Below, in pieces: positions 3,007 to 39,949 of a DNA stretch of 64,000 nucleotides. Source of the stretch: an uncultured Bacteroidales bacterium (GTDB lineage: Bacteria > Bacteroidota > Bacteroidia > Bacteroidales > VadinHA17). The DNA lies in the NCBI GenBank assembly GCA_963791065.1, contig CAWBQN010000026.1, positions 217-64,216 on the forward strand, read 5' to 3'. Each line of letters starts with the position of its first letter. Position 1 is the first letter of the stretch. Made by a program: the position numbers and the translations under genes. A model generated the notes under the pieces. The model was not told the origin of the DNA. It ran no database searches and saw nothing but the letters and a program-made list of their open reading frames with translations.

Positions 3007-3270
3007 ATAAATCAGTTTATCAGTTTAATTTCTTTTTAGACTAAAAGGTACAAAGCTAACATTTATTTCAATTCATAAAATCATTTTGTTATTTAATTTA
3101 ATCAAATCAAGATAATATTTAAGCAAATATATAGATTAAGTGAATGAAATATACATATCAGCTTTATTTAATAAATATTATTAATATGACAAAAGTCATA
3201 TTAAGTCTTTCTTTAACATTTATTAATATAATTGAGCTTCATAGTTTTATTGAAGTCTGCAAAATCCTGA

Positions 3271-3278
3271 TAATTTTG
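3271..3278 (+). promoter_or_regulatory. Putative Bacteroidota -7 promoter element for the propeller/Fe-S operon
   Basis: TAATTTTG matches TAnnTTTG, about 25 nt upstream of ATG 3304 in an AT-rich divergent spacer. Confidence 0.4.
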
Positions 3279-3303
3279 TTCCTGAATTTAAATCAATCAC
3301 AAA

Positions 3304-4548
3304 ATGAAAAATTTATTAGCGTCTATCTCCTTAATATTTTGTTTATTACAATTATCTGAGGGTCAAAAAATAAGCGAATGGCGACCGGAAAACAGAACCG
3401 GGGTATCTGCCGAAACCGGATTGCTTAAATCGTGGCCTGAAGCGGGTCCTTCTTTGCTGTGGTTCAACCAGGATCTGGCTCCGGGCTTTTCATCGGTAAC
3501 ATTTGGGCAAAACTCAATATTTTTAACCGGAATGATTGGAAAAAACGATGTATTATTTGCATTAGATACTGTTGGAAAAATCAAATGGCAGGTACCCTAT
3601 GGACGTTCCTGGAAAGGAGCCACTCCTGAAAGCAGATGTACTCCCACTGTCGAAGGGAACAGCGTTTATGTATCCAGCGGATCGGGTGATCTGGCTTGTG
3701 TTGACGCAAATACCGGTAAAATTATCTGGTCGGTCAAAGCCAGTGAAACATACAAAGGAACCTTTGAACAATGGGGCATTGCCGAATCACTTCTCATAGA
3801 TGGAAATAAACTTTATTTCACGCCGGGCGGACCATTGACTATGACTATCGCTCTGGATAAAAAGACAGGTACTTTAATCTGGAAATCTGCAAGCCTTAAG
3901 GATTCTCCCGCGTACGTTTCTCCTATCCTTATAAATTTCAAGGGAAAGAGATTAATAATTAATGTTTCAAGCAGCTATATTTTTGCAGTTGATCCTTCAA
4001 ATGGGAATATAGTATGGAAAATAAAGCATCTTGACATTAACCCCGCAAAAGCTGAAGTAATAAAATGCGTTACCCCTCTTTATTCCGATGGGAAAATTTA
4101 TGTCACCGGGGGTTATGATCATGGAGCCGTAATGCTCAGTTTAACGGATGGCGGTAATAATGCAACAGTAGCATGGACAGATAATGTTCTGGACGTTCAT
4201 CACGGGGGTGTGGTACTTGTTAAAGGTAATATCTACGGGTCAAACTGGTTGAACAATAACGATGGAAACTGGTGTTGCATAGATTGGAATACTGGTAAGA
4301 AAAAATATGAAGAGCACTGGAAATGCAAAGGCTCGATCATTTCTGCTGAAGATATGCTATATATCTATGATGAACGATCAGGTTTTGTGGGTCTGGTTAA
4401 GGCAAATCCTGATAAATTCGATTTAGTAAGCAGCTTTAAAATATCCAAAGGATCAGGACCATACTGGGCACATCCTGTCATACATAATAAAAAGCTTTAT
4501 ATCAGGCATGGAAAGGTTCTGATGGTGTATAATATAAAAAGCGTCTGA
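3304..4548 (+). CDS. Secreted PQQ-binding-like (BamB-like) beta-propeller protein
   Basis: Sec signal cleaved before Gln (SEG|QK), EWRPENRTG N-terminal motif, repeated A(L/V)DxxTGKxxW blades, C-terminal WAHPVIHNKKLYIRH. Confidence 0.85.
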   Translation: MKNLLASISLIFCLLQLSEGQKISEWRPENRTGVSAETGLLKSWPEAGPSLLWFNQDLAPGFSSVTFGQNSIFLTGMIGKNDVLFALDTVGKIKWQVPYGRSWKGATPESRCTPTVEGNSVYVSSGSGDLACVDANTGKIIWSVKASETYKGTFEQWGIAESLLIDGNKLYFTPGGPLTMTIALDKKTGTLIWKSASLKDSPAYVSPILINFKGKRLIINVSSSYIFAVDPSNGNIVWKIKHLDINPAKAEVIKCVTPLYSDGKIYVTGGYDHGAVMLSLTDGGNNATVAWTDNVLDVHHGGVVLVKGNIYGSNWLNNNDGNWCCIDWNTGKKKYEEHWKCKGSIISAEDMLYIYDERSGFVGLVKANPDKFDLVSSFKISKGSGPYWAHPVIHNKKLYIRHGKVLMVYNIKSV

Positions 4549-4618
4549 CAGAATTATATTAAAAAGTGTAATTCTGCGTTTTATTTAATCTGGTGAGTGA
4601 AAATTCCTGAAGGAGCCT

Positions 4619-6070
4619 ATGTTCCCTGATAAAAGAAACATAATCTACATATTTCTGACTATTTTAGTATTTGGAGCAGTATTCCTTTGGTGGATCTTTA
4701 AGAATCAACCTCTGCCGGTCTCCGAAAGAATTCCCGGCATGGACGAACGTCCAAAAATGGCAGTCCGTCCAGATACAGTGAATATCGGAGAATTTTTTGA
4801 TACTCTCTCGGCGATGGATGCAATTGTGCCCGGTGACTGGCCACGTTTCAGGGGCACTGATTTTGATAATATTAATAAAGATACAACTCCGCTATCCGAG
4901 AATTGGGACACTTCCGGACCTTCAATACTCTGGAGAGCAACTCTTGGTGAAGGATATGCCGGACCGGCAGTACATAACGGCAGAGTATACCTTCTCGATT
5001 ATAATGAAAGAAAAAAGGCTGATGTGCTGAGATGTTTTTCACTTTCATCGGGAAAAGAACTCTGGAGGCGGTGGTATTATGTTGATCTGAAACGAAATCA
5101 CGGGTACTCAAGAACGATTCCTGCAGTTACCGACAAATATCTCGTTACAATCGGACCACGATCTCATGTAATGTGTGTTGATCCATACAGCGGAAAAATG
5201 CTGTGGTCAATTGATCTCGAAAAAGAGTTTGGTATCCCGGGGACAGAGAAAGGAAGAATTACTCCCGACTTTTATACGGGACAATGTCCTATGATCGATA
5301 ATGATATAGCTGTTCTTGCACCTGGCGGGAAAGCTCTGATGATAGGTGTGGATTGTGCTTCAGGAAAAATAATCTGGGAAACACCTAATCCTGATTCTTT
5401 GCGAATGTCGCACAACTCTATAATGCCGATGACAATTCTTGGAAAAAGAATGTATGTATATAATGCAGTTGGAGGAGTCTGTGGAGTATCTGCAGAGAAA
5501 CCTGATATAGGCAAGCTAATGTGGGTTACTACAGACTGGAGCCCGGCCACAACTGCTGCCTCACCAATCTTTCTTGGAAATGACGAAATTGCTGTTTTTG
5601 GAAGCTATGGAGCCGGAGGTGCAAGAATCGTTATAAGTAGTGCAGCATCGGGGTATTCTGCCATCGTCAGGGAACAGCACAAAGCTACAAATGGACTCGC
5701 CAGCGATCAACAAACTCCCGTAATCATCGGAAATTATATCTGGAGTGTTCTTCCTGAAAATGCCGGAGCACTGAAAAAGCAGCTTGTCTGCTATAAAAAG
5801 ACAGACCTTTTAACAGCAGTGTGGTCGAGCGGCAAAGAATACAGGTTTGGACGCGGACTGGGACCATATATTGTGAGCGGTGATAAATTATATCTTCTGG
5901 ATGATGACGGAAATCTTTACTTTTATAAGATTCAGGATAACAAAGCCACATTGTTGGCGAGTCATAAAATATTGAAAGGGATTGAGGCATGGGGTCCGAT
6001 GGCTATAGCCGGTAAGTACCTCATTATGAGAGATTCACGAAATTTGCTTTGTTTGAATATTGGTAAATGA
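4619..6070 (+). CDS. Membrane-anchored PQQ-binding-like beta-propeller protein
   Basis: N-terminal TM helix, GDWPRFRG, GEGYAGPAVHNGRVYLLD, SGKELW/SGKMLW/SGKIIW blades, AWGPMAIAGKYLIMRD. Confidence 0.85.
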   Translation: MFPDKRNIIYIFLTILVFGAVFLWWIFKNQPLPVSERIPGMDERPKMAVRPDTVNIGEFFDTLSAMDAIVPGDWPRFRGTDFDNINKDTTPLSENWDTSGPSILWRATLGEGYAGPAVHNGRVYLLDYNERKKADVLRCFSLSSGKELWRRWYYVDLKRNHGYSRTIPAVTDKYLVTIGPRSHVMCVDPYSGKMLWSIDLEKEFGIPGTEKGRITPDFYTGQCPMIDNDIAVLAPGGKALMIGVDCASGKIIWETPNPDSLRMSHNSIMPMTILGKRMYVYNAVGGVCGVSAEKPDIGKLMWVTTDWSPATTAASPIFLGNDEIAVFGSYGAGGARIVISSAASGYSAIVREQHKATNGLASDQQTPVIIGNYIWSVLPENAGALKKQLVCYKKTDLLTAVWSSGKEYRFGRGLGPYIVSGDKLYLLDDDGNLYFYKIQDNKATLLASHKILKGIEAWGPMAIAGKYLIMRDSRNLLCLNIGK

Positions 6071-6077
6071 ACCGAAA

Positions 6078-6998
6078 ATGAAAAAGAATCTGATAACAAT
6101 TTTATCTGTGTTGGTTATACTCGCTTTCATGGGGTATATAGTATTTGATTCCGTTAAGCCGTCTCTGGCTGCTAAAAGTGAACCTGTGACAGTGGAATCT
6201 CACGAGATATCTGATGCCTGGGAGATCTCAAATGTTTTCAAGGTAAGTGAAGGTTCTCTTAAAGCAGTAACAGTGACTCCAAATGGAGAAATATATCTTG
6301 GAGGAACTTCATTCCTGTCGTGTTATGACAAGGATTTGAATCTCGTGTGGAAAAAGAAAACCAAATCGCCTGTAACATCGCTTTCAAACTATGGCGACAC
6401 TATTTATGCATCAACATCAAGTATGATATATGTTTTGAATTTCGCTGGCAGAATATTAAATGAATGGGGACCTTTTGAAGACAGCTCTCTCATTACATCT
6501 TTAAGCTCAAACCGGAAATATGTTGCAGTTGCCGATGCCGGAAATAAAATGGTCTTTATTCTGGATAAAGGTGGCGAGGTTAAAAAAATGATAGGTCAGA
6601 ATAAAAAAGAATTTGTTATCCCAAGTCCTTATTTTGATGTAGCCCTCGATAACGATGATAATCTTTTTGTTGCAAATACAGGGAAACACCGCATTGAAAC
6701 ACGGACAATTGATGGTGCGGTAAAAACCTATTTTGGAGAAGCCGGGACTGCTCCGGGATTATTCTGCGGGTGTTGTGCTCCTCCTCATTTCGCAATCATT
6801 CCTGACGGATTTGTGACTGCTGAGAAAGGAATTAACAGGATCAAGATCCTGAACAAAAAGGGTGAATTCGTTGAGTATGTCAATTCAAAAAATAGCTTTG
6901 TTAAATCCGTCCCTCTGGATGTGGCTTCCAGTGATGGTAAAACTATTTATGCTGCCAATCCGGCTGACTCGAGACTATATATATTTAAAAGAAAATAA
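6078..6998 (+). CDS. Membrane-anchored NHL-repeat beta-propeller protein with CGCC motif
   Basis: Likely start ATG 6078 (track starts at 6060). N-terminal TM, VAVADAGNK, DVALDNDDNLFVANTGKHRI NHL repeats, GLFCGCCAPPHF. Confidence 0.75.
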   Translation: MKKNLITILSVLVILAFMGYIVFDSVKPSLAAKSEPVTVESHEISDAWEISNVFKVSEGSLKAVTVTPNGEIYLGGTSFLSCYDKDLNLVWKKKTKSPVTSLSNYGDTIYASTSSMIYVLNFAGRILNEWGPFEDSSLITSLSSNRKYVAVADAGNKMVFILDKGGEVKKMIGQNKKEFVIPSPYFDVALDNDDNLFVANTGKHRIETRTIDGAVKTYFGEAGTAPGLFCGCCAPPHFAIIPDGFVTAEKGINRIKILNKKGEFVEYVNSKNSFVKSVPLDVASSDGKTIYAANPADSRLYIFKRK

Positions 6999-7029
6999 AT
7001 ATGAAGGATTCAAAACTTTATTTATAAAA

Positions 7030-7124
7030 CCTTTGTGATCCTTAGCGCAAACCTTTGAGCACCTTTGTGGTAAAAAAAATATTCAACCACAAAGGAACAC
7101 AAAGTAATTCACAAAGGAACACGA
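7030..7124. repeat. Hairpin element built from CACAAAG/CTTTGTG ~9-10 nt units
   Basis: CTTTGTGATC CTTAGCGCAAAC CTTTGAGCAC CTTTGTGGT ... ACCACAAAGG AACACAAAGT AATTCACAAAGG AACACGA; the two arms are inverted. Confidence 0.7.
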
Positions 7125-7140
7125 TGGGAAAATGTACAAC

Positions 7141-7168
7141 AAGCAACAAGTAACCAGTAACAAGCAAC
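7141..7168. repeat. Short 7-mer tandem repeat
   Basis: AAGCAAC AAGTAAC CAGTAAC AAGCAAC. Confidence 0.6.
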
Positions 7169-7175
7169 ATATTTT

Positions 7176-7340
7176 ATGACCAGAAATGAATTATTAAAAA
7201 GACTCGGCAGATATATACTGCTTCTGCTGATTGCTATAATTGCCATTTCGCTCGGAAAGAAAGTTGTGGGAACGAACGATTGCACAACCTGTGCCGGTAA
7301 GGGAATTTGCAACGGCAAAACAGACTGTAATAAGTACTAA
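7176..7340 (+). CDS. Small (54 aa) membrane-anchored Cys-rich protein, missed by the ORF track
   Basis: MTRNELLKRLGRYILLLLIAIIAISLGKKVVGTNDCTTCAGKGICNGKTDCNKY*. TAT-like N-terminus, TM helix, CxxC-x5-C-x5-C. Ends 11 nt before the ferredoxin gene. Confidence 0.75.
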   Translation: MTRNELLKRLGRYILLLLIAIIAISLGKKVVGTNDCTTCAGKGICNGKTDCNKY

Positions 7341-7351
7341 ACAGACCATTC

Positions 7352-7921
7352 ATGAAGGCCGGCAAAAATAAATATCAGTCAAGACGCGATTTTGTGAAAG
7401 CTGCAGGGAAGGTGATTGTGGCGGTACCCCTGATAATAATCCCGGCATTTCTTGCAAAAAAAACCTCGGCTTCGGGTTATGTCTGGCAGATCGATCCGTT
7501 CAAATGCACTCAATGCGGTCAGTGCAAAACCAATTGCGTCCTTACTCCTTCTGCCTCAAAATGTGTCCACGCGTTCAGAATGTGTGGTTATTGCGATCTT
7601 TGCGGAGGCTATCTCCGTCAGGGAGTGAAAACTATAAGTACAGGCGCGGAAAACCAGCTATGTCCGACCGGAGCAATTACCCGAAAATTCGTAGAGGAAC
7701 CGTATTTTGAATATACCATCAATGAAAAGCTATGTGACGGTTGCGCTAAATGTGTCAAGGGATGCGGCGATTTCGGGAACGGATCACTTTATATGCAGAT
7801 CCGGCATGACAGGTGCCTGAACTGCAATGAATGTTCAATTGCACGAACCTGCCCTTCGAATGCAATTTCAAGAATTCCTGCCAGGATTGCATATTTACCT
7901 AAAGACGCACCCAAAAAATAA
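7352..7921 (+). CDS. TAT-exported polyferredoxin (multi-[4Fe-4S])
   Basis: SRRDFVK twin-arginine signal plus h-region; CTQCGQCKTNC, CGYCDLC, CPTGAI, CDGCAKCVKGC, CLNCNEC..CP. Confidence 0.85.
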   Translation: MKAGKNKYQSRRDFVKAAGKVIVAVPLIIIPAFLAKKTSASGYVWQIDPFKCTQCGQCKTNCVLTPSASKCVHAFRMCGYCDLCGGYLRQGVKTISTGAENQLCPTGAITRKFVEEPYFEYTINEKLCDGCAKCVKGCGDFGNGSLYMQIRHDRCLNCNECSIARTCPSNAISRIPARIAYLPKDAPKK

Positions 7922-7934
7922 AAAATAAATTCAG

Positions 7935-8022
7935 TAACCGCAAAGTACGCAAAGCGAAATCAAAAAAGAACTTACACAGAGAGACACAGAGAAGCACAGA
8001 GTTACACAGAGAAAAAACACGA
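7935..8022. repeat. One-armed CGCAAAG / CACAGAG unit repeats
   Basis: TAACCGCAAAG TACGCAAAG ... TACACAGAG AGACACAGAG AAGCACAGAG TTACACAGAG. Confidence 0.65.
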
Positions 8023-8034
8023 AACGAAAAACGA

Positions 8035-9303
8035 TTGATGAAGAAAGCCTTACCATATATATTATTTGTACTGCTTTTATGCTGGCATGTGGTTCTCTTT
8101 GCCCAGGACAGGTTTCCCAGGCCTGAATTTGAATCAGGTCATATCTATCCCACCAACCAGATGCCTGTTCCGAGAGCCCGGTTGCTGGAGTATCTTGATG
8201 TTGTAGTATTGATTGGTGCGTTGATAATAACAACCTGGCTTGCATTGAAAAAGCGTTCAAGACAGGGCCTGATATGGATGTCGGTATTTTCCGTGGCATA
8301 TTTCGGTTTTTACAGACAAGGCTGCATCTGTTCGGTAGGTTCGGTTCAGAATGTATCGCTGGCATTGTTTAATACCGGCTACTCTATTCCGGTTACCGCT
8401 CTTCTTTTCTTTATTATTCCACTCCTCTTCGCTCTTGCTTACGGACGTGTATTTTGCGCGGGAGTTTGTCCGCTTGGTGCTATTCAGGAATTAACCGGTT
8501 TAAAACCCGTCAAACTGCCAAAACCAGTGGAAGTGATCCTTGCATTTGTACCATTTATTTATCTCGGGATTGCAATATTGTTCTCAGCCACAAACAGTCA
8601 GTTCATGATCTGCAAATATGATCCTTTTATTGGTATATTCAGACTTGATGCCCCCTATACTATGATAATATTTGGAGCCTTGCTGCTTCTGGCAGGAATA
8701 TTTGTCAACAGGCCATATTGCAGATATCTGTGTCCCTACGGAGTCCTTCTCAATATCTTTTCACGGTTTGCAGGGAAACATCTGACAATAACACCAGCTG
8801 AATGCACGAATTGCCGGCTTTGTGAGGAAGCCTGTCCCTATGATGCCATCCTCCCTGCTGATACTGATCAGACCAGGGAAGAACCTGAGAGATCAAGAAA
8901 AAGGTTTATTCTCTACTTTATTCTTGTGCCAGTCTTTGCATTCAGCGGGGCATTTTTACTTTATAACCTAGCTCCTGCCTTGTCAGGTGCTAATAGTACT
9001 GTCAGACTGGCAAGGGAGATCAGAAGTGAGAAAAAAACCGGAATTGAAACTACCCTGAAAGATGTTGTGGCATTCAAAGAATCGGGCAAAACAGAATCGG
9101 AACTATTTAAAGATGAAGAATTAATAATTAATCGATACATAAAAGGCTCACCCTGGGCAGGTGCATTTCTTGGAATTTCATTCGGTATAGGAATGATCTC
9201 ATTGACAATAAGAAGTAAGAGAAGCGAATATAAGCCACACCAGGGGAAGTGTTATAGTTGCGGTAGATGTTTTAAATATTGTCCAATTCAAGTGAAAGTT
9301 TAA
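8035..9303 (+). CDS. Integral-membrane 4Fe-4S binding protein (NapH/MauN/NosR-C-terminal-like)
   Basis: Multiple TM helices, two CxxxCP motifs (FCAGVCPLG, YCRYLCPYG), GCICSVG, ferredoxin motifs CTNCRLCEEACP and CYSCGRCFKYCP. Confidence 0.85.
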   Translation: MMKKALPYILFVLLLCWHVVLFAQDRFPRPEFESGHIYPTNQMPVPRARLLEYLDVVVLIGALIITTWLALKKRSRQGLIWMSVFSVAYFGFYRQGCICSVGSVQNVSLALFNTGYSIPVTALLFFIIPLLFALAYGRVFCAGVCPLGAIQELTGLKPVKLPKPVEVILAFVPFIYLGIAILFSATNSQFMICKYDPFIGIFRLDAPYTMIIFGALLLLAGIFVNRPYCRYLCPYGVLLNIFSRFAGKHLTITPAECTNCRLCEEACPYDAILPADTDQTREEPERSRKRFILYFILVPVFAFSGAFLLYNLAPALSGANSTVRLAREIRSEKKTGIETTLKDVVAFKESGKTESELFKDEELIINRYIKGSPWAGAFLGISFGIGMISLTIRSKRSEYKPHQGKCYSCGRCFKYCPIQVKV

Positions 9304-9304
9304 A

Positions 9305-10999
9305 ATGAAGATTGCTTTAAATGAAAAAGATATCCGGGTTCTGAAAATTGTCAGTCAGATTGCAGGAGGATTTGCGCTTATCGTTGCTCTGACCATGATC
9401 TTCGCTCTGATCCAGTTAAAAACTGTGAATCCATTGGATAATCCGGTTTTGCTTTCGGTGAAGGAGCAGTATGACAAGGATCCGTCAGATGCTGCAAAAG
9501 CAGCACAGGTCAGAGCCATGGATCTGATGGCCCGGAAAGCCTATTTCAGTTCAAGGTGGCAGGTTGAAGCCGGTTCATACCTTCTGATTGCAGGAGTTAT
9601 TGTATTCATAATATGTCAGAGGCTTATTACAGAAAATGAGAAACTCAATCCGGTGCTCACTGATTCAAAACCCAGCTCCATATTGAATCGCGAGAGGAAC
9701 AGAAAATATCTCATTTCTTCAGTCACTGTGGTTTTTATATTAGCTGTGGCAGCATCTTTTTTTCTCCGGGCGGATCTTCCCGATATATCGGGCAATTCTT
9801 CACGAACAGCTAAGAGTGAAGTTGGAGGAGACAACAAAGCTTCTAAACCTGATAAAACAAACTGGCCATTTTTCCGTGGACAGGATAGTCGTGGTATTGC
9901 AGGCGGCTCAGGTTATCCGACCGAATGGAATGGAGAATCGGGAAAAAATATTGAATGGAAACTGGAGGTGCCAGGGAAAGGGAAGAGTTCTCCTGTTATC
10001 TGGGGTGATAGGATTTTTATTACAGGTGTGAAGGATAAAGTTTGTGAAATATATTGCATCGATAAGAATAGTGGAAAAATTTTGTGGACTGGCTCTGCGT
10101 CCAATGTTCCTGGAGAACCTGCTGTACCACCAAAGACAGATGCCGAAGCTGGTCTGGCTGTATCAACAGCAGCTTCAAATGGCAAAGTTGTGTGTGCTGT
10201 TTTTGCAAATGGCAACCTGGCCTGCTTTGATTTGGATGGAAAACAGATCTGGGCAAAAAATATAGGGGTACCTGAAACCAGTTACGGTTACTCATCATCA
10301 CTGCTCATATATAAAGATATTCTGATCGTCCAATTCGATAGCAATTCCAAAATATCACTTAATGGATTTGACCTCGGAACCGGTGATCAGAAATGGGAAA
10401 CTCCCCGGCAGGGACGTGCAGTATGGTCATCCCCGGTACTCGGGTATTTTAACGGAAAAACTCAGGTAATAATAAACGGTAATCCTTTCGTCAGTGGTTA
10501 TGATCCGGTAACAGGAACCGAACTCTGGGAAATAGAATGTATGAGCGGTGATGTTGCGCCATCAGTAGCAGTTAATAGTACCCTTGCATATGCTGTAACT
10601 GATTATGCAAAGCTGGCAGCAATTAAACCCGGTAACGGAGTCTCGATTGCCTGGGAAGACAATACATATACTCCTGATGTTTCGAGCCCTGTTGCTACAG
10701 ATAAGTTCTTATTCTTATCTACAGGAAATGGAGACGTTGCCTGCTACAATGCATTGAAAGGAGATACAGTATGGACTCATTATTTCCAGGATCCATTCTA
10801 TGCCTCACCAATAATAGCAGATGAAATGGTTTACCTGCTTGACAGAGCTGGTATCATGCATATAGTCAAAGCAGAAGATAAATTCACTCATATCGGTGAT
10901 TCTCCTCTTGGTGAGAGCGCCGATTGCTCTCCTGCCTTTTCTGACAAGAAAATTTATATCAGGGGAACGAAAAACCTCTATTGTATTTCGAAGAATTGA
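9305..10999 (+). CDS. PQQ-binding-like beta-propeller with three N-terminal TM helices
   Basis: Three hydrophobic segments in the first ~155 aa, then NWPFFRG, GKSSPVIWGDRIF, WSSPV, FYASPII, SPAFSDKKIYIRG. Confidence 0.85.
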   Translation: MKIALNEKDIRVLKIVSQIAGGFALIVALTMIFALIQLKTVNPLDNPVLLSVKEQYDKDPSDAAKAAQVRAMDLMARKAYFSSRWQVEAGSYLLIAGVIVFIICQRLITENEKLNPVLTDSKPSSILNRERNRKYLISSVTVVFILAVAASFFLRADLPDISGNSSRTAKSEVGGDNKASKPDKTNWPFFRGQDSRGIAGGSGYPTEWNGESGKNIEWKLEVPGKGKSSPVIWGDRIFITGVKDKVCEIYCIDKNSGKILWTGSASNVPGEPAVPPKTDAEAGLAVSTAASNGKVVCAVFANGNLACFDLDGKQIWAKNIGVPETSYGYSSSLLIYKDILIVQFDSNSKISLNGFDLGTGDQKWETPRQGRAVWSSPVLGYFNGKTQVIINGNPFVSGYDPVTGTELWEIECMSGDVAPSVAVNSTLAYAVTDYAKLAAIKPGNGVSIAWEDNTYTPDVSSPVATDKFLFLSTGNGDVACYNALKGDTVWTHYFQDPFYASPIIADEMVYLLDRAGIMHIVKAEDKFTHIGDSPLGESADCSPAFSDKKIYIRGTKNLYCISKN

Positions 11000-15597: not shown

Positions 15598-15614
15598 ATT
15601 CTCTTTGGCCTCTC

Positions 15615-16634
15615 ATACCTCATCTGTGCCATGATTATATTCCAATTAACTATCATCATGAGTAACTTGAAGTGTAACAGACATAGCCATCGTTGGTACT
15701 TCATTTTGCGAATATGATGTATGCCAAATACTGATTTCCATATCTTGAAGATCAACTCGATTTGCCAGCGCATCCTGTAAAGAGAAGATATAACCTCATC
15801 CGGTAACACCTCTTTGGTCACATTGGTAATGAAGAGATTGAACCGGGCTAGAAACTTATATTCTTCACTGGTTTTATAACCTTTTTTCTTATGTAGTTTG
15901 TGGATTTTTCTCATACTCTCCTCATAGATATCATCAGGCATAAGTTCTATTACCAACCGAACAGGTATCTTTTCTTCGGAATCCAATAAATACATCCTTG
16001 TAGATCCTCGATAGCTTGCCTCTCTTCATCTGATTATAGACAGCTTTAAAATCAAGTTTTTTATAGGTCCCCACAACTCATCTCAAAAACATTTGTTTTG
16101 GCTCCTAGCCTGGAGATAAAGAAGGCTTCCTTTTTTAAGATATTGATAAAAGAATTGAAAGCATAATACCCAAGATCCCTTATGACCAGATCGCCTTTTT
16201 TGACATTGTCCAAGAGCTCCAAAGCATCTTTGACATCTGGTCTGTTGGAAGCTGTAATATCTAGATCTGTGACATGGCCACTTTTTAAATCAAACTCAAA
16301 TTGCAGACATGCTCCTGCAGCTAGAACCACTACCCCCAGAACCAGGAAAATAATCTTTGTATTCTTCCGGAAGGTTAAACCGCGTTCCGTCCTTAATAGT
16401 AACCCTCTTAAATGAACTAAGCCATCCCGCATCAATCTGATGATCTAATTCTACCGACAGTTGCTTTTCAATCAAACTCTTTAAGAACCCAAGAGTATGC
16501 TCATTAAATTTTTTGTCGATCCCTTGTTTAGTAACCCCAATATCATGTTCTGACCTTGCTTCAATGGAAAGCTGGTTCAGGCTTTTGGAGTTGCCTGAAC
16601 TCATGTCATACATCAATAAATCAAAGAACACTGC
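15615..16634 (-). pseudogene. Degraded IS4-family transposase fragment (several frameshifts, both ends missing)
   Basis: Pieces in three ORFs: IKDGTRF (first Asp), IRDLGYY (second Asp) and YRMRWQIELIFKIWK (IS4 Y-x2-R-x3-E-x6-K signature). Confidence 0.85.
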
Positions 16635-16716
16635 CCCCTGCCCCCTTCTCCCAGGTGAGAAGGGGGAACAAGGGAATCCCCCCTGGGTAGAGGGATTTAG
16701 GGAGAGGCAAAGAGAA
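16635..16716. repeat. GC-rich REP-like hairpin repeat
   Basis: CCCCCTTCTC-CCAGGT-GAGAAGGGGG hairpin followed by CCCCCCTGGGTAGAGGGATTTAGGGAGAGGC. A related degenerate motif occurs near 28375-28410. Confidence 0.55.
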
Positions 16717-16743
16717 GAGGTCCTCAGAGGAATATTAAATAAC

Positions 16744-18048
16744 ATGAAAATAGTCTATCTCATCACAGGTTCGGGAGGTTCATTTTATTGCGGCAATTGT
16801 TATCGTGATATGATCTACCTCAGGGCTATCCGAAAGGTCCCGGGGATTAGCGCTTCCGCTATACCATTGTATCTTCCTCCTGATGGTCCGGATAACGAAA
16901 CAGGCATGGATAAAAATGTCTTTTTCGGTGCGATATCGATGTATCTGAGAGAAAAAGTCCCGTTCCTCAAAAATATGCCGGTATTTCTGGAGAAAATGTT
17001 TGATTCCGCACCAATGCTTAAGATGGCCTCTCAGAGAGCCGGTACAACCAGGACAGAGGGTCTTGAAGAAATGACTCTTAATATGATAAAAGGCGAAAAT
17101 GCATTTCCTGAAAAGGAACTGAATCGGCTGGTGGATTATCTGACAAAAGACGGAAAACCTGATATCATTCATCTCTCTAATGCCCTTATAATCGGCCTGG
17201 CACGACAGATCAAGAAGAAGCTTGATGTAAAAATTGTTTGCTCTCTTCTTAATGAAGACGACTGGATAGACGAAATGGCAGAACCTTACCAGTCGGGAGC
17301 ATGGAATCTGATATCTATTGAAGCATCGAATGTTGATGCGTTCCTTACCCCCAGTAATTATTATAAAGAGCTGTTCATTTCAAAAACAGGAATTTCCGGA
17401 GCCAATTTTCACGTTATCCCACTTGGATTTGATCCGGCTGGTCAGATAAATTCTGAAAAGAGAGATAATTATCCCTCTGTAGGATATTTCTGCAGAATAA
17501 GCTCTCAGAACGGTTTTGACAAGCTTGTAGATGCTTTTATTGAGATGAAAACAGCTGATTATCTCCCGGGACTGACCCTTCACGTTTCTGGCGGGTACAC
17601 TGGTGATGATAAACCTTTTATTGCTCAGCAGATAAAGAAAATAAAATCAAGTGGCCTGAAATCTTTTGTAAGAATATATCCGGAATTTCATGGTAACAGC
17701 AAACAGGAGTTTTTCAGGAATATAGATGTGATGAGTGTGCCAGTCAGAAAGCATGATGGTTACGGTTTATACATCCTTGAAGCAAATGCTGCAGGAGTAC
17801 CGGTTGTCCAGCCTGCTACAGGAGCATTTCCGGAAATCATTTCAAGGACCTCGGGAGGATTAACTTATTCACCTGATACCGTATCGGAACTTTCAGCAAA
17901 CCTGCTGAAAATACTGAAAGATAATGAATTACGTATTCAGCTGGGAAAACAGGGAAAAAATAAGGTTCTTTCTGAACTATCACTTGAGAAAATGTCAGAA
18001 AGCTTATCCAAAGTTTATAATTCTTTACCACAAAGGAACACGAAGTAA
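16744..18048 (+). CDS. Glycosyltransferase family 4 (GT-B) with N-terminal CxxC
   Basis: True start is ATG 16744: MKIVYLITGSGGSFYCGNCYRD; PDIIHLSNAL; DGYGLYILEANAAGVPVVQPATGAFPE. The track's upstream extension runs through the IS remnant and repeat. Confidence 0.88.
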   Translation: MKIVYLITGSGGSFYCGNCYRDMIYLRAIRKVPGISASAIPLYLPPDGPDNETGMDKNVFFGAISMYLREKVPFLKNMPVFLEKMFDSAPMLKMASQRAGTTRTEGLEEMTLNMIKGENAFPEKELNRLVDYLTKDGKPDIIHLSNALIIGLARQIKKKLDVKIVCSLLNEDDWIDEMAEPYQSGAWNLISIEASNVDAFLTPSNYYKELFISKTGISGANFHVIPLGFDPAGQINSEKRDNYPSVGYFCRISSQNGFDKLVDAFIEMKTADYLPGLTLHVSGGYTGDDKPFIAQQIKKIKSSGLKSFVRIYPEFHGNSKQEFFRNIDVMSVPVRKHDGYGLYILEANAAGVPVVQPATGAFPEIISRTSGGLTYSPDTVSELSANLLKILKDNELRIQLGKQGKNKVLSELSLEKMSESLSKVYNSLPQRNTK

Positions 18049-18082
18049 ACGTAACAGAGTGACATACATATACCAAAAGTAA

Positions 18083-18757
18083 ATGCTCTCAATTAAAAAT
18101 ATTTCGAAATCCTTTATTCAGCGCGGTTTAGTTCTCGATAATCTTTGCCTTGAGGTGGCCGAGGGAGAGACTATTGCCATAATGGGTCCATCGGGTTCGG
18201 GGAAAACAACCCTTATGAATATCATAGGGTTGCTTGATAAGCCCGATTCAGGTGAAATATCCTTCAGAGGTGCAGCAATAGCGGGATTTTCAGAGGATGA
18301 ATCGGCGGATTACAGGAACAAAAATATTGGTTTTGTATTTCAGGACCATCATCTTCTGCCATATCTTACCGTTTCGGAAAATATATACCTCCCGCTTCTG
18401 GCTTCAAAGCATTCAAAGGAAGACCTTTCTGCCAGTCAGGACTATTTGGAGGAACTGATGGAAAAGACCGGCATTTCTGATCTGAAAGACAAATATCCCT
18501 TCAGGATATCAGGCGGAGAATCTCAAAGGGTTGCGCTTGTCAGGGCACTGGCAAACAAACCTTCAATCATTCTTGCAGATGAACCAACAGGTTCGCTTGA
18601 TGCAAGAAATGCGGAAAATTTGGGCGAGCTCCTTATACGAACGAGTGTAGATTTTGGCAAAACAATCATTCTCGCCACTCATTCAATCAACCTTGCTAAA
18701 AAGATGTCAAAAATATTGTACCTGAAGGAAGGTATCCTTAAAGTCTCAACAGAATAG
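18083..18757 (+). CDS. ABC transporter ATP-binding protein (LolD/MacB-like)
   Basis: Walker A GPSGSGKTT, GFVFQDHHLL, ISGGESQRVALVRAL, ILADEPTGSLD, ATHS. Confidence 0.95.
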   Translation: MLSIKNISKSFIQRGLVLDNLCLEVAEGETIAIMGPSGSGKTTLMNIIGLLDKPDSGEISFRGAAIAGFSEDESADYRNKNIGFVFQDHHLLPYLTVSENIYLPLLASKHSKEDLSASQDYLEELMEKTGISDLKDKYPFRISGGESQRVALVRALANKPSIILADEPTGSLDARNAENLGELLIRTSVDFGKTIILATHSINLAKKMSKILYLKEGILKVSTE

Positions 18758-18775
18758 CAGAATAGAATTACTATC

Positions 18776-21700
18776 ATGCTAAGCATAAAGTTAGCTATAC
18801 AATCAATTAAATTCTATAAAAATCAGGTTGTAAACCAGGTTCTTATCATCGTATTGCTGACAGCCGTAATAACCGGTTCGCTGCTGACGGGAAGTTCTGT
18901 CAAGGAGAGCCTGATAAGGACCGCTTCGCAACGCCTTGGCAACGCTGACATTGTGATTAGTACAGGAAACAGATATTTTAGTCGTGACCTTGGTTTAAGA
19001 ATGCATGAAAAATCAGGTATTTCAAGCACAGGATTGCTGGAAACCAAAGGTTACTGTCAGGTACTGAATAGTCAGAAGGGATCATTCAACACAAATATTT
19101 ACGGTATCACTGAAGATTTTTTTGGTTTCCAGGGATTTGATACAATAAATCTGAGGCCGGGAGAAATTATTATTAACAGCAAGCTGGCCGGAATACTCGG
19201 AGCTAAGGTGGGTGACGACATTATGATACGTTACAAAGAGATAAGCTACATACCCTCTGATGCTCCTTTTGCCCCTTCAAAAGATGAAAGTAAATCGATT
19301 GTAATGAAGATCGGACGTATTCTGCCACCTGATCAGGTTGGCAGCTTTTCATTGTCAATCAGTCAGATCACACCTTCAAATATTTTTGTGAATCTCTCCG
19401 ATCTGGAAGATAATCCGGATAATTCACTGAAGATTAACCGGCTGCTTATAAAGCAAATAAGTTCAAATTCGCTGAAGAAAGTATCGCAGGAATTGAAAAG
19501 CTCATTGAGGCTTTCCGATATAGGACTAAAGTTAAGAAAGGTGTCAAAGACCGGTGAATATGAACTTATATCTGACAGGATATTTATAGATAGATCAATT
19601 ATTAATGAGATCAATAAGATTCTCCCGAATTCCTCGCCTGTCATTACTTACCTTGGAAACAAGTTTGTCGCTGGCTCTGAATTTACTCCGTATTCATTTG
19701 TTTCAGCTTTACCTGCAGCACTTTATCCTGAAATCCCCGGTGATAACGGAATGATAATAAACAGGTGGATGGCAGAAGATCTTTCAGTTGGTGAAGGCGA
19801 TACAATTCAAATGTACTGGTATTCTCCTGATTCCCTGAAAAAGCTTGTTGAAAGAAACAGCAGGTTCATTGTAAAGAAAGTTGTTGACATGAAAGGTATC
19901 TGGTCGGATTCACTGCTGATGCCTGAATTTCCAGGGATCTCAGGAAAAGAATCTTGTTCAGACTGGGATGCTGGCGTAATGATAAAAACCGATGAAATAC
20001 GGAATAAGGATGAGCAATACTGGAAAAGATACAAAGGTACACCGAAAGCCTTTATAGCTTATGAAAAAGGCAGGGAATTATGGGGTAATAATTTTGGACC
20101 TGCTACCGCGCTGCGCTATCCAGCAGGAATGACCGCCATGCAGATCACCGATAAGCTTGAAGGATCGCTTGATCCTGCGGATATGGGTTTTATTATCACC
20201 GATCTGGCTGATGAATCGGTTAAAGCAGCAAATACAGGTGTGGATTTCGGTTCTCTTTTTTTAAGCCTTGGATTCTTTCTCATTGTGGCTTCACTGGTCT
20301 TGTTGTCTTTTGCTGCCTCTTCATATTTCTATGCCAAAAGAGATCATATAAATACATTATTTGCCCTCGGCTTTAAAAACAGTCAGATTTTGCGACTGTT
20401 GTTCATGGAAAGCGGATTGATTGCTCTGACTGGCTGTTTTGCCGGGGCATTCGCCGGATACCTGGTAACTTTAGCAATTGCAGGTGCTCTCAATTCAGTA
20501 TGGAAGGGAGCCGTCCAGACAGATACGATTGGCGCTTTCTTTAACTTACTGCCAATTTGTTATGGCTTTCTCTTGACATTTCTTACGATAATGACCCTCA
20601 TGTTTATTAAGATAAAGCGATATCTCAACCGACTGACCACAGGTCGAATGGAGAAATATACAATTCCCTCAGCAACTCATAATGCCACCCTGGTGTCAGT
20701 TTCAGCAATCATAACAGTTTCACTGTTTATAATGGCGTCAAAATTCAGCAGCCAGCGAATGCTATTTTCTTTTTCCGCCGGTGCCATGCTTCTGGTTACA
20801 CTTATGCTTTCATGGAGACAGTATTTTATCAGCAGGACTGTTAACGCCCGGATTTCAATTAAGAACAGAAAGCAACTGTCACATTTATTCTATTCATTCA
20901 ACCCTTCAGTTGCAATCACTCCTATTCTATTTATCGCTGCCGGCATTTTTACGGTCTTTATAACTGGAGCCAACAGAATGAATTTCAGTGAAAAGCAGAT
21001 GAACAGGTCGGGAGGTACCGGCGGATATTTGCTTTGGTGTGAAAGCTCAATTCCTGTAATGGCAGATCCTAATACCGTACCGGGAAGGAAAACTCTTGGA
21101 TTCGACAGTGATCAGCTTTCCGGAATGAGCTTTGTCCTCCTAAAAAGATCTGCGGGCAACGATGCAAGCTGCCTTAACCTTAATCATATAATGTCACCTC
21201 CTATCCTTGGAGTTGATCCTGAGGTGTTCATAAAAAATAAATCATTCTCATTTGCAGGTTCCGTTGCAGGGAAAAAGCAAGGCAATCCCTGGGATTACCT
21301 GAATCTTCCGCCGGTGCATAATACTATATATGGAATTGCAGATCAGACGGTTCTTGAGTGGGGACTAAAGATAAAAACAGGAGATACATTAGTTATGAGA
21401 GCCGAAAATGGTCAGCTACTGAAAATAATTATTGCAGCAGGTCTGCAATCTTCTGTATTTCAGGGTAATGTATTGATTGCCATGCGCAATTTCACAATAT
21501 TCTACCCTTCCGTGCCGGGAAGTCAGGTGATGCTCGTAGATGGTGACAGGTCATTGATCGATATATACAAAAACTCTCTTGCTGAACGATTGGAGAATTA
21601 TGGAGTGGATATCGAAAAAACATCTGATCGCCTTGCTTCATTTTACCAGGTTACCAATACCTATCTTTCAGTATTTGGAATATTCGGCGCTCTTGGAATG

Positions 21701-22036
21701 GTGATAGGTATCGCCGGACTTGGATTTGTTCTGCTGAGAAATTATAACCAGCGAAAACAAGAATTTGCCCTGCTTCTTGCCACAGGGTTTCGTATAAAAC
21801 AGATACAACAAATGATTCTCAGTGATCAGGTTCTGATACTCTTTGCCGGGGTATCATCCGGCATCATTTCTGCTCTTGCTGCAACTTCGGTTTCGATACA
21901 AAGCAGCCCGGGCATACCATGGCTGTTTCTGATCATCATGATACTGGCAATTCTTGCAACAGGCATAGTTGCCTTGTTATTGTCGGTACGGTCTGTGACA
22001 AGGACTTCCTTAATATCAAGCTTAAAGAATGAATAG
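18776..22036 (+). CDS. Large FtsX/LolE/MacB-type ABC permease (two repeats)
   Basis: Two large periplasmic domains each followed by an FtsX-like TM bundle (KRDHINTLFALGF; QRKQEFALLLATGF). Directly follows the ATPase. Confidence 0.88.
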   Translation: MLSIKLAIQSIKFYKNQVVNQVLIIVLLTAVITGSLLTGSSVKESLIRTASQRLGNADIVISTGNRYFSRDLGLRMHEKSGISSTGLLETKGYCQVLNSQKGSFNTNIYGITEDFFGFQGFDTINLRPGEIIINSKLAGILGAKVGDDIMIRYKEISYIPSDAPFAPSKDESKSIVMKIGRILPPDQVGSFSLSISQITPSNIFVNLSDLEDNPDNSLKINRLLIKQISSNSLKKVSQELKSSLRLSDIGLKLRKVSKTGEYELISDRIFIDRSIINEINKILPNSSPVITYLGNKFVAGSEFTPYSFVSALPAALYPEIPGDNGMIINRWMAEDLSVGEGDTIQMYWYSPDSLKKLVERNSRFIVKKVVDMKGIWSDSLLMPEFPGISGKESCSDWDAGVMIKTDEIRNKDEQYWKRYKGTPKAFIAYEKGRELWGNNFGPATALRYPAGMTAMQITDKLEGSLDPADMGFIITDLADESVKAANTGVDFGSLFLSLGFFLIVASLVLLSFAASSYFYAKRDHINTLFALGFKNSQILRLLFMESGLIALTGCFAGAFAGYLVTLAIAGALNSVWKGAVQTDTIGAFFNLLPICYGFLLTFLTIMTLMFIKIKRYLNRLTTGRMEKYTIPSATHNATLVSVSAIITVSLFIMASKFSSQRMLFSFSAGAMLLVTLMLSWRQYFISRTVNARISIKNRKQLSHLFYSFNPSVAITPILFIAAGIFTVFITGANRMNFSEKQMNRSGGTGGYLLWCESSIPVMADPNTVPGRKTLGFDSDQLSGMSFVLLKRSAGNDASCLNLNHIMSPPILGVDPEVFIKNKSFSFAGSVAGKKQGNPWDYLNLPPVHNTIYGIADQTVLEWGLKIKTGDTLVMRAENGQLLKIIIAAGLQSSVFQGNVLIAMRNFTIFYPSVPGSQVMLVDGDRSLIDIYKNSLAERLENYGVDIEKTSDRLASFYQVTNTYLSVFGIFGALGMVIGIAGLGFVLLRNYNQRKQEFALLLATGFRIKQIQQMILSDQVLILFAGVSSGIISALAATSVSIQSSPGIPWLFLIIMILAILATGIVALLLSVRSVTRTSLISSLKNE

Positions 22037-22042
22037 TGATGA

Positions 22043-23401: not shown

Positions 23402-23422
23402 GATTAATTATGTAAAGAATGA

Positions 23423-24784: not shown

Positions 24785-24840
24785 AGGTTCAGGTGTAAAG
24801 ACTCTCAAATAAACTATTTACCGGGACTTTTAATATTATA

Positions 24841-26238: not shown

Positions 26239-26278
26239 AAGCTGTATTTAGTATTTAGGGAGAAGAAAATATTAACTT

Positions 26279-26286
26279 CAAAAATA
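26279..26286 (-). promoter_or_regulatory. Putative Bacteroidota -7 element for the FG-GAP/PQQ genes
   Basis: Minus strand TATTTTTG, about 40 nt upstream of ATG 26238. Confidence 0.35.
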
Positions 26287-26401
26287 ATCTAAATGTGCTT
26301 TATGACAGCATCGTATTGAAATAAATTAATTATTATTGAAAATTGAAGAATTCTCTTTTCTGAGTTGTGAAAATCAGAATATTTTATGTTATTGTTCTAA
26401 T

Positions 26402-39848: not shown

Positions 39849-39949
39849 CCTTTGTGTTCCTTTGTGATGTACTTTGTGGTTCTATGTTTTAAATTTTACC
39901 ACAAAGGCACTCAATCCCGAGTACTCGGGATCACAAAGGCCACAAAGGA
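39849..39949. repeat. CACAAAG-unit hairpin element with an embedded 18-bp palindrome
   Basis: (CTTTGTG)x3 ... (CACAAAGG)x3, with ATCCCGAGTACTCGGGAT at 39914-39931. Confidence 0.7.

Follow-up and report, generated by a model that had tools for sequence, protein, structure and literature searches.

NapGH and NosGH are quinol-dehydrogenase modules, each made up of a twin-arginine translocation (TAT) polyferredoxin and a NapH-type iron-sulfur (Fe-S) membrane protein; to our knowledge, the role of the cytoplasmic clusters of NapH-type proteins is unsettled. In the nos system, NosGH/NosR and the ATP-binding cassette (ABC) proteins NosDFY serve the NosZ propeller, and in the mau system, MauM/MauN serve the propeller heavy chain MauB and the Cys-rich light chain MauA. 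Type VII ABC systems act on periplasmic partners. One of them, YbbAP-TesA, is reported to pull hydrophobic compounds out of the inner membrane (PMC12646458). According to the available text of PMC9304861, the Bfu family is defined by a conserved BfuBC core with flavin mononucleotide (FMN) and six clusters, of which clusters B2-B5 are absent from non-bifurcating homologs; Mbh-Bfu and Nuo-Bfu are named there as membrane-bound Bfu types, and the words “periplasm” and “NapH” are absent from its main text. Here, we analyze a window of 64,000 nucleotides (nt) from an uncultured Bacteroidales bacterium (contig CAWBQN010000026.1, positions 217 to 64,216), in which a cluster of 13 genes (P1 to P10, GT4, P12, and P13) encodes modules of the kinds listed above together with a set of beta-propeller proteins. 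We show that the cluster is conserved in gene order across relatives, and that its parts are retained even where they are unlinked.

Results

Conservation and distribution of the cluster

All 13 genes lie on the plus strand between positions 3304 and 22036, and the open reading frame (ORF) listing and the Pfam and NCBIfam scans confirmed the domains and gene overlaps of the initial annotation (Table 1). The junctions 9303/9305, 10996/10999, 13397/13404, and 14470/14470 were all found, position 10996 being a TTG in the P8 frame; the P7 gene abuts P6 and overlaps P8.

Using an alignment of P6, we scanned public genomes, one per species, and mapped the window proteins with tblastn onto the best 80 of at least 574 relatives. 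It should be noted that these relatives are not independent, and that the counts describe distribution, not statistics. Moreover, some of the 80 public loci are the same contigs as those in the order-level sample described below, i.e., the two sets are not independent; presence counts are restricted to loci whose flank reaches the expected position of the gene. The best 80 loci are Bacteroidota records, labeled Bacteroidales, “Rikenellaceae”, Lentimicrobiaceae, “Saprospiraceae”, and one “Chlorobiota” metagenome-assembled genome (MAG), and they include an isolate. Throughout these loci, the genes follow the order 1-2-3-(4)-5-6-7-(8-9)-10-GT-ABC-X, which persists down to identities of 46% (P6), 39% (GT4), and 31% (P13). 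Within the genus, P6 orthologs are present in 24/24 other sampled genomes, and the 12 regions that were fetched keep the order from P1 to P13. As judged from these alignments, the recurrence of the gene order is far beyond chance. The count for P4 (Table 1) comes from a query of only 54 residues, and at least one tblastn “miss” (the distant locus L095) holds P4 on direct reading; the few misses of the ABC genes and P13 (e.g., in L091) may reflect longer clusters running off the locus.

We then sampled the order Bacteroidales evenly, drawing 301 genomes, among them the source genome (G000). P6 was found in 54 of these genomes and in 44 of 208 genera, i.e., in about one genome in six; GT4 was found in 50 genomes, and both together in 48. 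Six genomes have P6 without GT4 (G039, G085, G172, G217, G274, and G304), and two have GT4 without P6 (G040, 70% complete, and G295, 82% complete). The P3 profile matched in 54 genomes, strongly in 52 of them and with weak partial matches in frames of 533-558 residues in G176 and G287. All 52 genomes with strong P3 matches carry P6, and P6 without P3 was seen in G301 (82% complete) and G304 (78% complete).

Occurrence outside Bacteroidales was considered and rejected, because P6 orthologs were found in 0/300 other genomes of the phylum Bacteroidota and in 0/150 genomes drawn around the “Chlorobiota” record; the genome behind this lone record (L098), a 9-kb contig, yielded no GT4. The initial annotation had proposed a survey that included Bacteroidota; the cluster is indeed found in this phylum, but the matches place it in the order Bacteroidales only, in the samples searched. 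A cultured carrier is Perlabentimonas gracilis M08_MB (L091). In one locus from the same genus as the window (L024, G004:C4:575000-594999), tblastn splits nearly every cluster gene into two to four pieces and a TAG interrupts P6; either the cluster is pseudogenized, or the five-contig assembly, probably made from long reads, contains indel errors.

Table 1. The 13 genes of the cluster and the intervening element in the window, with the number of public loci in which each gene is present. TM, transmembrane; IS, insertion sequence; PQQ, pyrroloquinoline quinone.
Name	Position	Strand	Description	Loci with gene
P1	3304-4548	+	PQQ_2/BamB-like beta-propeller, secreted; signal peptide; PF13360 78.5 bits	47/58
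P2	4619-6070	+	PQQ_2 propeller, periplasmic; N-terminal TM anchor, residues 8-26; PF13360 70.5 bits	62/62
P3	6060-6998	+	six-bladed NHL propeller; TM anchor; CGCC, residues 236-239	65/68
P4	7176-7340	+	54-aa microprotein; TM anchor; four Cys (CxxCx5Cx5C); found by reading the sequence	48/71
P5	7352-7921	+	NapG-type TAT polyferredoxin; SRRDF twin-arginine signal; 16 Cys; Fer4 Pfam matches	71/71
P6	8035-9303	+	polytopic NapH/NosR-type Fe-S membrane protein; PF12801 Fer4_5 58.8 bits	
P7	9305-10999	+	three TM helices and periplasmic PQQ_2 propeller; PF13360 88.2 bits	72/72
P8	10981 or 10996-13404	+	BfuC-BfuB fusion: NuoE, 2Fe-2S, NuoF, 2x[4Fe-4S]; cytoplasmic	54/61
P9	13397-14470	+	BfuA-like Fe-S protein; Pfam Fer2_4, Fer4_20, Fer4_Nqo3	50/56
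P10	14470-15597	+	PQQ_2/ACSF4-type propeller, signal peptide; PF13570 194 bits, PF13360 156 bits	54/54
Decayed IS	15598-16743	-	DDE_Tnp_1 transposase in three frame-shifted ORF fragments; outside the system	
GT4	16744-18048	+	GT4 glycosyltransferase; PF00534 62.8 bits	51/51
P12	18083-18757	+	LolD/MacB-type ABC ATPase; PF00005 122 bits	48/50
P13	18776-22036	+	1086-aa fused, duplicated type VII ABC permease; two FtsX domains (PF02687 twice)	44/47

A hydropathy scan places P1-P5, P7, and P10 outside the cytoplasm and P8, P9, GT4, and P12 inside. Every propeller has a signal peptide or an anchor, such that P2, P3, and P7 are predicted to be tethered to the inner membrane (P7 by segments 18-36, 86-104, and 136-154) and P1 and P10 to be soluble. 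A lipoprotein nature of P1 and P10 was considered and rejected, the candidate Cys being kept in only 2/77 (P1) and 1/51 (P10) sequences. The likely start of P3 is the Met at 6078, judged from orthologs. None of the cluster proteins reaches the cut-off of a specific NCBIfam family. As the initial annotation had stated, no catalytic terminal subunit is recognizable in the cluster: Pfam and NCBIfam scans gave no hydrogenase, formate dehydrogenase, reductase, molybdopterin, or haem subunit, and the translations of the cluster contain no CxxCH motif of multihaem cytochromes. No Rfam family reached its gathering score in the whole window, and thus no riboswitch hints at a ligand.

Optional parts, split clusters, and the insertion sequence

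The P8/P9 module is optional. In 8 of the 80 public loci (L062-L065, L067, L072, L073, and L075), P7 runs straight to P10 with no P8/P9, and the same arrangement is seen in three regions from the genus of the window (L017-L019). The three genomes of these regions have no P9 ortholog anywhere; their best P9-like matches have E-values of 1e-13 to 1e-15 over about 100 residues, in hydrogenase-sized frames, compared to 1e-137 to 1e-144 in module-bearing genomes. GT4 can be missing, too: in G217 and G274, which have otherwise complete clusters, P10 is followed directly by the ABC genes, and no GT4 ortholog was found in these genomes at an E-value of 1e-40. The copy number of P1 varies from 0 to 4 among relatives. 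The constant core consists of P2, P3, P5, P6, P7, P10, and P12/P13, and probably P4.

The cluster can also be divided without loss of its parts. Of the 48 genomes with both P6 and GT4, 30 have the two genes on one contig, no more than about 12 kb apart; in 17 they are on different contigs, and in G260 they are 272 kb apart. The split clusters are [2,3,5,6,7,8,9] + [10,GT] in G260, [1,2,3,5,6,7] + [8,9,10,GT] in G050, and [1,2,3,1,5,6] + [9,10 ... GT,ABC ... X] in G223; P10 goes with the P9, GT4, or ABC side. Each of these three genomes has one strong P13 match, located about 35 kb from P6 in G260 and about 145 kb from GT4 in G050. Because the parts are all kept when unlinked, this pattern fits a functional dependency and is hard to square with mere neighborhood.

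In this genome, the run of 13 genes is real but interrupted by an element that the initial annotation had missed. Three minus-strand ORF fragments (15594-15995, 16061-16435, and 16296-16745) lie between P10 and GT4, and the first two match different parts of the Pfam profile DDE_Tnp_1; by these matches, the minus-strand element is a decayed IS. There is no second copy of this IS relic in the genome, and it is absent from the 12 + 80 loci that were mapped using its three fragments as queries; an informal reading of one close relative gives a P10-GT4 gap of about 100 nt. The long ORF 16513-18048 runs into the IS relic, whereas the orthologs begin at Met 16744; thus, with the relic overlooked, GT4 was first read about 77 codons too long. 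P10 and GT4 are both intact despite the IS relic, which in this organism may uncouple the transcription of the GT4 and ABC genes from that of the upstream genes. The end of the relic nearest GT4 includes a sequence of about 40 nt (16677-16720) that recurs in at least nine other places of the genome with 87-94% identity and is probably a small dispersed repeat. Metatranscriptome contigs from four sets matched positions 3000-22100 in short pieces with 90-95% likeness, mostly over repeats and the IS.

These observations bear on the possibility that two or three independent systems travel together, i.e., a redox operon P1-P10 and an envelope-biogenesis GT4/ABC unit. The absence of GT4 from two complete clusters, the splitting of the cluster into two or three loci in G260, G050, and G223, the lack of close linkage (about 12 kb on one contig) between P6 and GT4 in 18 of 48 genomes, and the IS between the two halves in this genome are all compatible with independence. 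However, of the 50 GT4-positive genomes, 48 are also P6-positive, the other two having a completeness of 70% and 82%; no part is lost where the cluster is scattered; P10 stands at the junction and moves with either side; and the ABC genes stay joined to P10 even where GT4 is lost. Apart from the cases listed above, no half was found without the other in the 301 + 300 + 150 genomes. Independent systems are therefore very unlikely in our view, and there is a strong probability that all 13 genes serve one function. The co-occurrence and synteny of the redox genes with the GT4, ABC, and propeller genes in other genomes, on which the initial annotation had made its proposal depend, were observed.

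The membrane and periplasmic Fe-S proteins

P5 and P6 are adjacent genes whose products resemble a NapGH pair in architecture. In P5, R11 and R12 are invariant and 16 Cys residues are kept in 71-72 of 72 orthologs, predicted to be enough for four [4Fe-4S] clusters; the twin-arginine signal combined with four clusters of the CxxCxxCxxxC type identifies P5 as a NapG-type protein, and no NapG-specific NCBIfam model scored above its cut-off. Hydropathy gives P6 about 7-8 TM helices. Its sequence contains an invariant CxC and the motifs CX3CP and CxxCxxCxxxCP, each of them twice, the first copy of CxxCxxCxxxCP being central and the second lying at the very C-terminus; the invariant Cys residues include C141/C145, C229/C233, C257/C260/C263/C267, and C406/C409/C412/C416. 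The polytopic P6 matches Fer4_5 in two stretches, well above the cut-off of 22 bits (Table 1). Its best NCBIfam names are NapH/MauN, NosR, and NapH, all below their cut-offs (TIGR02163, 62.6 vs 213.05; NF007013, 51.3 vs 234; NosR, 52.7 vs 1000), and a sequence search of PDB structures matched only its ferredoxin motifs.

The microprotein P4 has no Pfam or NCBIfam match. Its four Cys residues are kept in 49/49 sequences, its N-terminus reads MxRxxF, and a full RR motif is present in the distant orthologs of L079 and L095 (MDRRSF in L095), which suggests that P4 is a TAT-targeted, membrane-anchored mini Cys protein. Complex prediction for P5 (residues 41-189) and P4 with P3 (residues 45-312) as the partner gave scores of 0.34, 0.17, and 0.16, compared to a mark of 0.32, which weigh neither for nor against binding.

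The cytoplasmic Bfu-type module

Residues 199-804 of P8 align to residues 7-596 of NfnB (PDB 9n5u_B) with an E-value of 3e-205, and the whole sequence scores 686.8 bits against this chain. The alignment covers the N-terminal 2Fe-2S domain and the C-terminal double [4Fe-4S] motifs. The next matches are the B subunits of the bifurcating complexes 9bov, 8oh5, 7t2r, 7q4v, 8a6t, and 7p5h, and plain NuoF chains score about half as high in the same PDB sequence search. Pfam detects a NuoE domain, Complex1_51K with the FMN/NADH site, NADH_4Fe-4S, and a C-terminal dicluster domain, the NuoE/BfuC domain being fused in front of the BfuB part; the scores for NuoF (TIGR01959, 453.1 vs 558.65) and NuoE (NF005722, 128.7 vs 141) are below the cut-offs. 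In domain content, P8 has the architecture of the BfuBC core of the Bfu family, and by sequence similarity it is a bifurcating-type BfuC-BfuB fusion closest to NfnB.

P9 matches, over residues 1-190, the N-termini of 9bov_A, NfnA (9n5u_A), and 8oh5_C, and its C-terminal end is an Nqo3-type ferredoxin domain. The cluster Cys residues of P9 are all kept in 36/36 sequences. Pfam and the PDB sequence search found no catalytic domain in P9, i.e., no H-cluster, pterin, or complete FAD/NADP domain. The P9 ortholog of L095, with 515 residues, retains part of a GltD-type FAD/NAD(P) domain (a Pyr_redox_2 piece) and aligns to residues 4-287 and 449-671 of 8oh5_C; on one reading, the flavin domain has been eroded in the lineage of the window. 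The description of P8 and P9 in the initial annotation as a NuoEF fusion with an Fe-S subunit holds for the NuoE and NuoF domains, but the pair is better described as a Bfu-type BfuC-BfuB fusion with a stripped BfuA than as plain NuoEF. A BfuA without a catalytic site would have to pass electrons elsewhere, and the adjacent candidates would be the cytoplasmic clusters of P6.

A selenocysteine in P8 of L022 and L023 was considered and rejected, the TAA/TAG stops arising from a local frameshift and a wrong start choice. The frameshift, with TAA and TAG nine codons apart, lies in L022 at 8196-10619 (the P8 ortholog of G018) and is either an assembly error or a recent inactivation.

The joining of a bifurcating-type Bfu core to a membrane and periplasmic Fe-S chain would be expected if the system were a fermentative electron sink, i.e., a haem-free branch that dumps NADH/ferredoxin electrons via P6 and P5 onto external or periplasmic acceptors, e.g., sulfur species, humic quinones, or metals. 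The propellers would then be binding scaffolds, and the ABC proteins and GT4 would only build a required surface structure. Such a sink would also suit the carrier MAGs, which record titles and run labels assign to peat, fen, sediment, and digester, and the lack of a terminal reductase recognizable by Pfam or NCBIfam. On the other hand, the cluster encodes neither an outer-membrane conduit nor a multihaem cytochrome, the Bfu module can be absent, and the propellers are tied to no acceptor. We consider an electron sink quite unlikely.

Propeller proteins

The AF2 model of P3 has a pLDDT of 89.9, and its top Foldseek matches are the NHL domains of Thin, TRIM2, and Brat (E-value 1e-15, TM-score 0.71-0.79). 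Based on this fold and the PF01436 match (22.5 vs a cut-off of 20), we confidently assign the modeled P3 to the six-bladed NHL type. Fold searches with P3 returned only generic NHL and WD40 propellers, with no functional lead, and the ESM Atlas only uncharacterized Bacteroidota clusters and generic NHL/SGL families. The residues C238 and C239 of P3, within the motif GCCNP, are invariant in 60/60 and 33/33 orthologs. A P3 profile searched against 1.84 billion representatives found 1964 proteins at an E-value of 1e-30. Among the best 150 of these 1964, 135 are single-domain proteins (at most 400 residues); GCC[NAS]P is found in 133 of them, and CC without the full motif in the remaining two. The other 15 are giant NHL-repeat proteins, in which the motif GCC[NAS]P is absent. 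Vicinal Cys residues can bind metal or join in a strained, redox-active disulfide, as in methanol dehydrogenase. The GCCNP pair is the sole candidate redox feature that we found on any propeller.

In P2, residues C139, C186, C223, and C391 are kept in 71-74 of 74 sequences, and the conserved residues of P1, P2, P7, and P10 are mostly Gly, Trp, and Cys of the repeats. The propellers are below the cut-off for PQQ dehydrogenases (TIGR03075/TIGR03074, 17.8-75.5 vs 480), and no search for PQQ biosynthesis genes was made beside this scoring; they are also below the BamB cut-off (TIGR03300, 26.5-140.7 vs 285.2).

The vicinal pair of P3, the four Cys residues of P4, and the conserved Cys residues in the loops of P13 (see below) could point to repair of thiol or oxidative damage in the envelope, in which exported NAD(P)H or quinol electrons reduce periplasmic thiols or methionines or detoxify peroxides, with P3 and P4 as thiol relays. 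The carriers are Bacteroidales, anaerobes that need envelope protection. However, Pfam and NCBIfam gave no match to a thioredoxin, DsbD/CcdA, Msr, or peroxidase fold; known repair systems make no use of five or more propellers or of a type VII ABC system; and the cluster occurs in only 54/301 genomes of the order. A repair function appears highly improbable.

The ABC proteins and the glycosyltransferase

P12 and P13 are a type VII (MacB/FtsX) ABC pair, i.e., an FtsX permease with periplasmic domains and a LolD/MacB-type ATPase. By hydropathy, P13 crosses the membrane about 10 times and has two large loops outside, with the invariant residues C394 and C799 in the loop motifs SCSDWD and DASCLNLN, and its PF02687 match of 68.1 bits covers two stretches. 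There is no PDB match to P13 at the sequence level. Its AF2 model has a pLDDT of 81.9 and matches first, in Foldseek, Escherichia coli YbbP (9ge7_A and 9ge6_A; E-values 1e-14 to 8e-14 over 871-907 aligned columns), with a TM-score of only 0.30-0.45 and 14% identity; BceB, LolCDE, MacB, and HrtB follow. For loop 1, the language-model lead from the Atlas is MacB_PCD. The specific families are not reached by P12 (LolD TIGR02211, 211.6 vs 307.75) or P13 (lolCE, 19.3 vs 362.45).

GT4 belongs to its family by three Pfam matches above cut-off (PF00534, Table 1; PF13692, 55.9; PF13439, 36.3) and reaches no specific NCBIfam equivalog (MshA, 50.3 vs 462.5; BshA, 45.7 vs 273.7). Its nearest solved relatives in the PDB sequence search are PimB', BshA, and MshA, in the C-terminal domain only. 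In the N-terminal half, C16, C19, H143, and C166 are kept in 48-49 of 49 orthologs, so that this acceptor-binding half may contain a metal or redox site. Public metagenome proteins include thousands of close GT4 relatives, and their source-given names are generic.

With all parts of the cluster in view, a maturation machine can be weighed, in which the propeller(s) would be the sole enzymes, and P5/P6, P4, the ABC proteins, and GT4 would build or insert a protein-derived or exported cofactor. The set of a NapH/MauN-family protein, a TAT ferredoxin, propellers, a small Cys-rich protein, and an ABC system is nos/mau-like, and both the invariant vicinal Cys pair of P3 and the several propeller paralogs of variable copy number suit this proposal. 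Against it, there is no cupredoxin domain, conserved His ligand set, or copper chaperone, Pfam finds no radical-SAM or other modifying enzyme in the cluster, P4 has only 54 residues, and the ABC proteins are of type VII (FtsX), whereas NosFY is of the ABC-2 type. In addition, a Bfu-type NADH/ferredoxin module is a heavy investment for biogenesis alone. Altogether, maturation seems rather unlikely to be the function of the cluster.

Discussion

We tentatively favor, at somewhat under an even chance, a conserved envelope system built from a NapGH-like pair, propellers, and a type VII ABC machine, with the Bfu module and GT4 as accessories. In this system, electrons would pass between the reducing pools of the cell and the periplasmic ferredoxin P5. 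It is somewhat probable, by analogy to NapGH, that P5/P6 move electrons between the membrane or cytoplasm and the periplasm. Where the Bfu module is present, NADH and ferredoxin would supply the cytoplasmic clusters of P6 by way of P8 and P9; where it is absent, quinol or another donor would act at P6. We see the balance as even for such a link of P8/P9 to P6, with quinol or another donor elsewhere. P5 would then serve a redox site on the membrane-tethered propellers, the best candidate being the vicinal dithiol GCCNP of P3; the placing of the acceptor or donor site there is doubtful. The substrate could be a hydrophobic or lipid-linked envelope molecule, glycosylated where GT4 is present, which the ABC machine would lift out of the inner membrane and present to the propellers. 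This last step, i.e., extraction by the ABC proteins of a hydrophobic or lipid-linked molecule, made or decorated by GT4 where present, and its transfer to the propellers, is likewise a possibility on which we would not rely. The proteins could assemble physically, and the direction of electron flow may be either inward or outward.

Several observations weigh against this envelope system or restrict it. P6 is far below the NapH and NosR cut-offs, and thus only the architecture supports the NapGH analogy. Eight loci and three genomes of the same genus lack the Bfu module, and therefore NADH is not the universal donor; similarly, a substrate that is always glycosylated is excluded by the complete clusters of G217 and G274, which lack GT4. 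The single conserved Cys residues of the PQQ_2 propellers are repeat positions and need not be catalytic, and a metal or cofactor ligand set is recognizable in no propeller. Finally, the IS relic is tolerated, so that co-transcription of both halves is not required in this genome. The initial annotation had proposed one machine that wires NAD(H) and ferredoxin across the inner membrane and couples this to a glycosylated or lipid-linked product. The redox, propeller, GT4, and ABC genes are indeed syntenic and co-occur, but the NAD(H) module is not integral and GT4 is not obligatory.

A bolder version takes the cluster products to be a periplasmic redox enzyme of a new class, without haem, pterin, or copper, in which a NapGH-like conduit would connect a bifurcating-type Bfu core across the inner membrane with the tethered propellers. 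The GCCNP pair, possibly together with the 4-Cys microprotein, would be the catalytic center, and the substrate would be a glycolipid or other hydrophobic envelope molecule extracted by the YbbAP-like ABC machine. We give this version a small chance. If it were true, this would be the first Bfu enzyme with a third substrate outside the cytoplasm.

The system is a common, unannotated trait of anaerobic Bacteroidales. If the proposed wiring is true, the Bfu family would acquire an output in the membrane and periplasm, a cytoplasmic electron partner would be assigned to NapH-type proteins, and type VII ABC machines would become linked to redox chemistry. Even if the function is mundane, six families gain context: four propeller types, the GCCNP NHL proteins, and the 4-Cys microprotein. 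The cultured carrier P. gracilis M08_MB makes these questions open to experiment.

Neighboring genes and repeats

A second pairing of a NapH-like protein with propellers adjoins the cluster at 22043-28348. It comprises, on the minus strand, two PQQ_2 propellers (22043-23401 and 23423-24808) and an FG-GAP protein (24841-26238), and a 670-residue Fer4_5 membrane protein (26336-28348) that faces the minus-strand propeller genes. The N-terminal external domain of the latter has a Cys/His/Met pattern that is cupredoxin-like by eye only. Within the genus, the propeller 22043-23401 is a conserved neighbor of P13. Farther downstream, adjacent genes with DUF2490, DUF4956, and VTC domains (28858-30921, minus strand) are apparently unrelated to the cluster.

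Repeats of CACA(A/G)AG with a 10-nt period occur in intergenic gaps (8 matches vs 0.05 expected), at 7053-7104, 7975-8011, 18029-18045, 39850-39866, and 46172-46188. Two of these sites are the P3-P4 and P5-P6 gaps, and spurious ORFs cross them, e.g., 7931-8365 (minus strand). In the distant locus L095, a DoxX/MauE-family membrane protein is encoded about 1 kb upstream of the cluster (3986-4363, minus strand), a name that echoes the mau analogy.

Comparison with known systems

We found no open-access paper or preprint describing this gene set and no curated hidden Markov model family for it, and the statement of the initial annotation that the composition matches no characterized pathway thus stands. 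A Bfu cluster of Perlabentimonas has been reported, and it is, according to the available part of PMC11406978, a different, hydrogenase-type cluster.

The cluster shares with NapGH/NosGH the adjacent genes for a twin-arginine protein with 16 Cys residues (P5) and a membrane protein with Fer4_5 and ferredoxin motifs (P6). In contrast to those modules, P6 carries an additional N-terminal segment with the invariant motif RFP(R/K)PEFE, and it further differs by a CxC motif, two additional TM helices, and another ferredoxin motif located at its very C-terminus; the Nap/Nos catalytic genes are absent from the cluster, and the partners here are PQQ_2 and NHL propellers and, in most lineages, the Bfu module. 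The nos and mau systems offer an analogy in that periplasmic propellers accompany a NapGH-like pair, with an ABC system in nos and a small Cys-rich subunit in mau. However, the propellers here are of the unrelated PQQ_2 and NHL types, without copper or tryptophan tryptophylquinone signatures, the ABC proteins are of another class, and the Bfu module and GT4 are present in addition. The likeness to PQQ dehydrogenases and BamB lies in the propeller repeat family (PF13360 and PF01011), whereas here there are several paralogs, some of them membrane-anchored, with scores below the cut-offs.

P8 resembles NfnB over the full length and P9 matches the N-termini of BfuA subunits, as in HydABC and NfnABC, but here BfuC and BfuB are fused, BfuA is without a catalytic domain, and the module is dispensable and embedded in a membrane and periplasmic cluster. 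Similarly to YbbAP(-TesA), P13 is a single-chain permease with about 10 TM helices, two FtsX domains, and two periplasmic domains, accompanied by the LolD-like P12, whereas P13 is longer than YbbP (1086 vs 804 residues) and has conserved Cys residues in both loops. Compared to type VII systems in general (BceAB, LolCDE, MacB, FtsEX, and YbbAP), the cluster is without a TesA-like hydrolase, LolA, MacA, or sensor kinase, and the neighbors of the ABC genes are propellers. Taken together, the modules are of known kinds, i.e., NapGH-like, Bfu, type VII ABC, GT4, and propellers; their combination is undescribed, and the terminal chemistry is possibly of a new kind.

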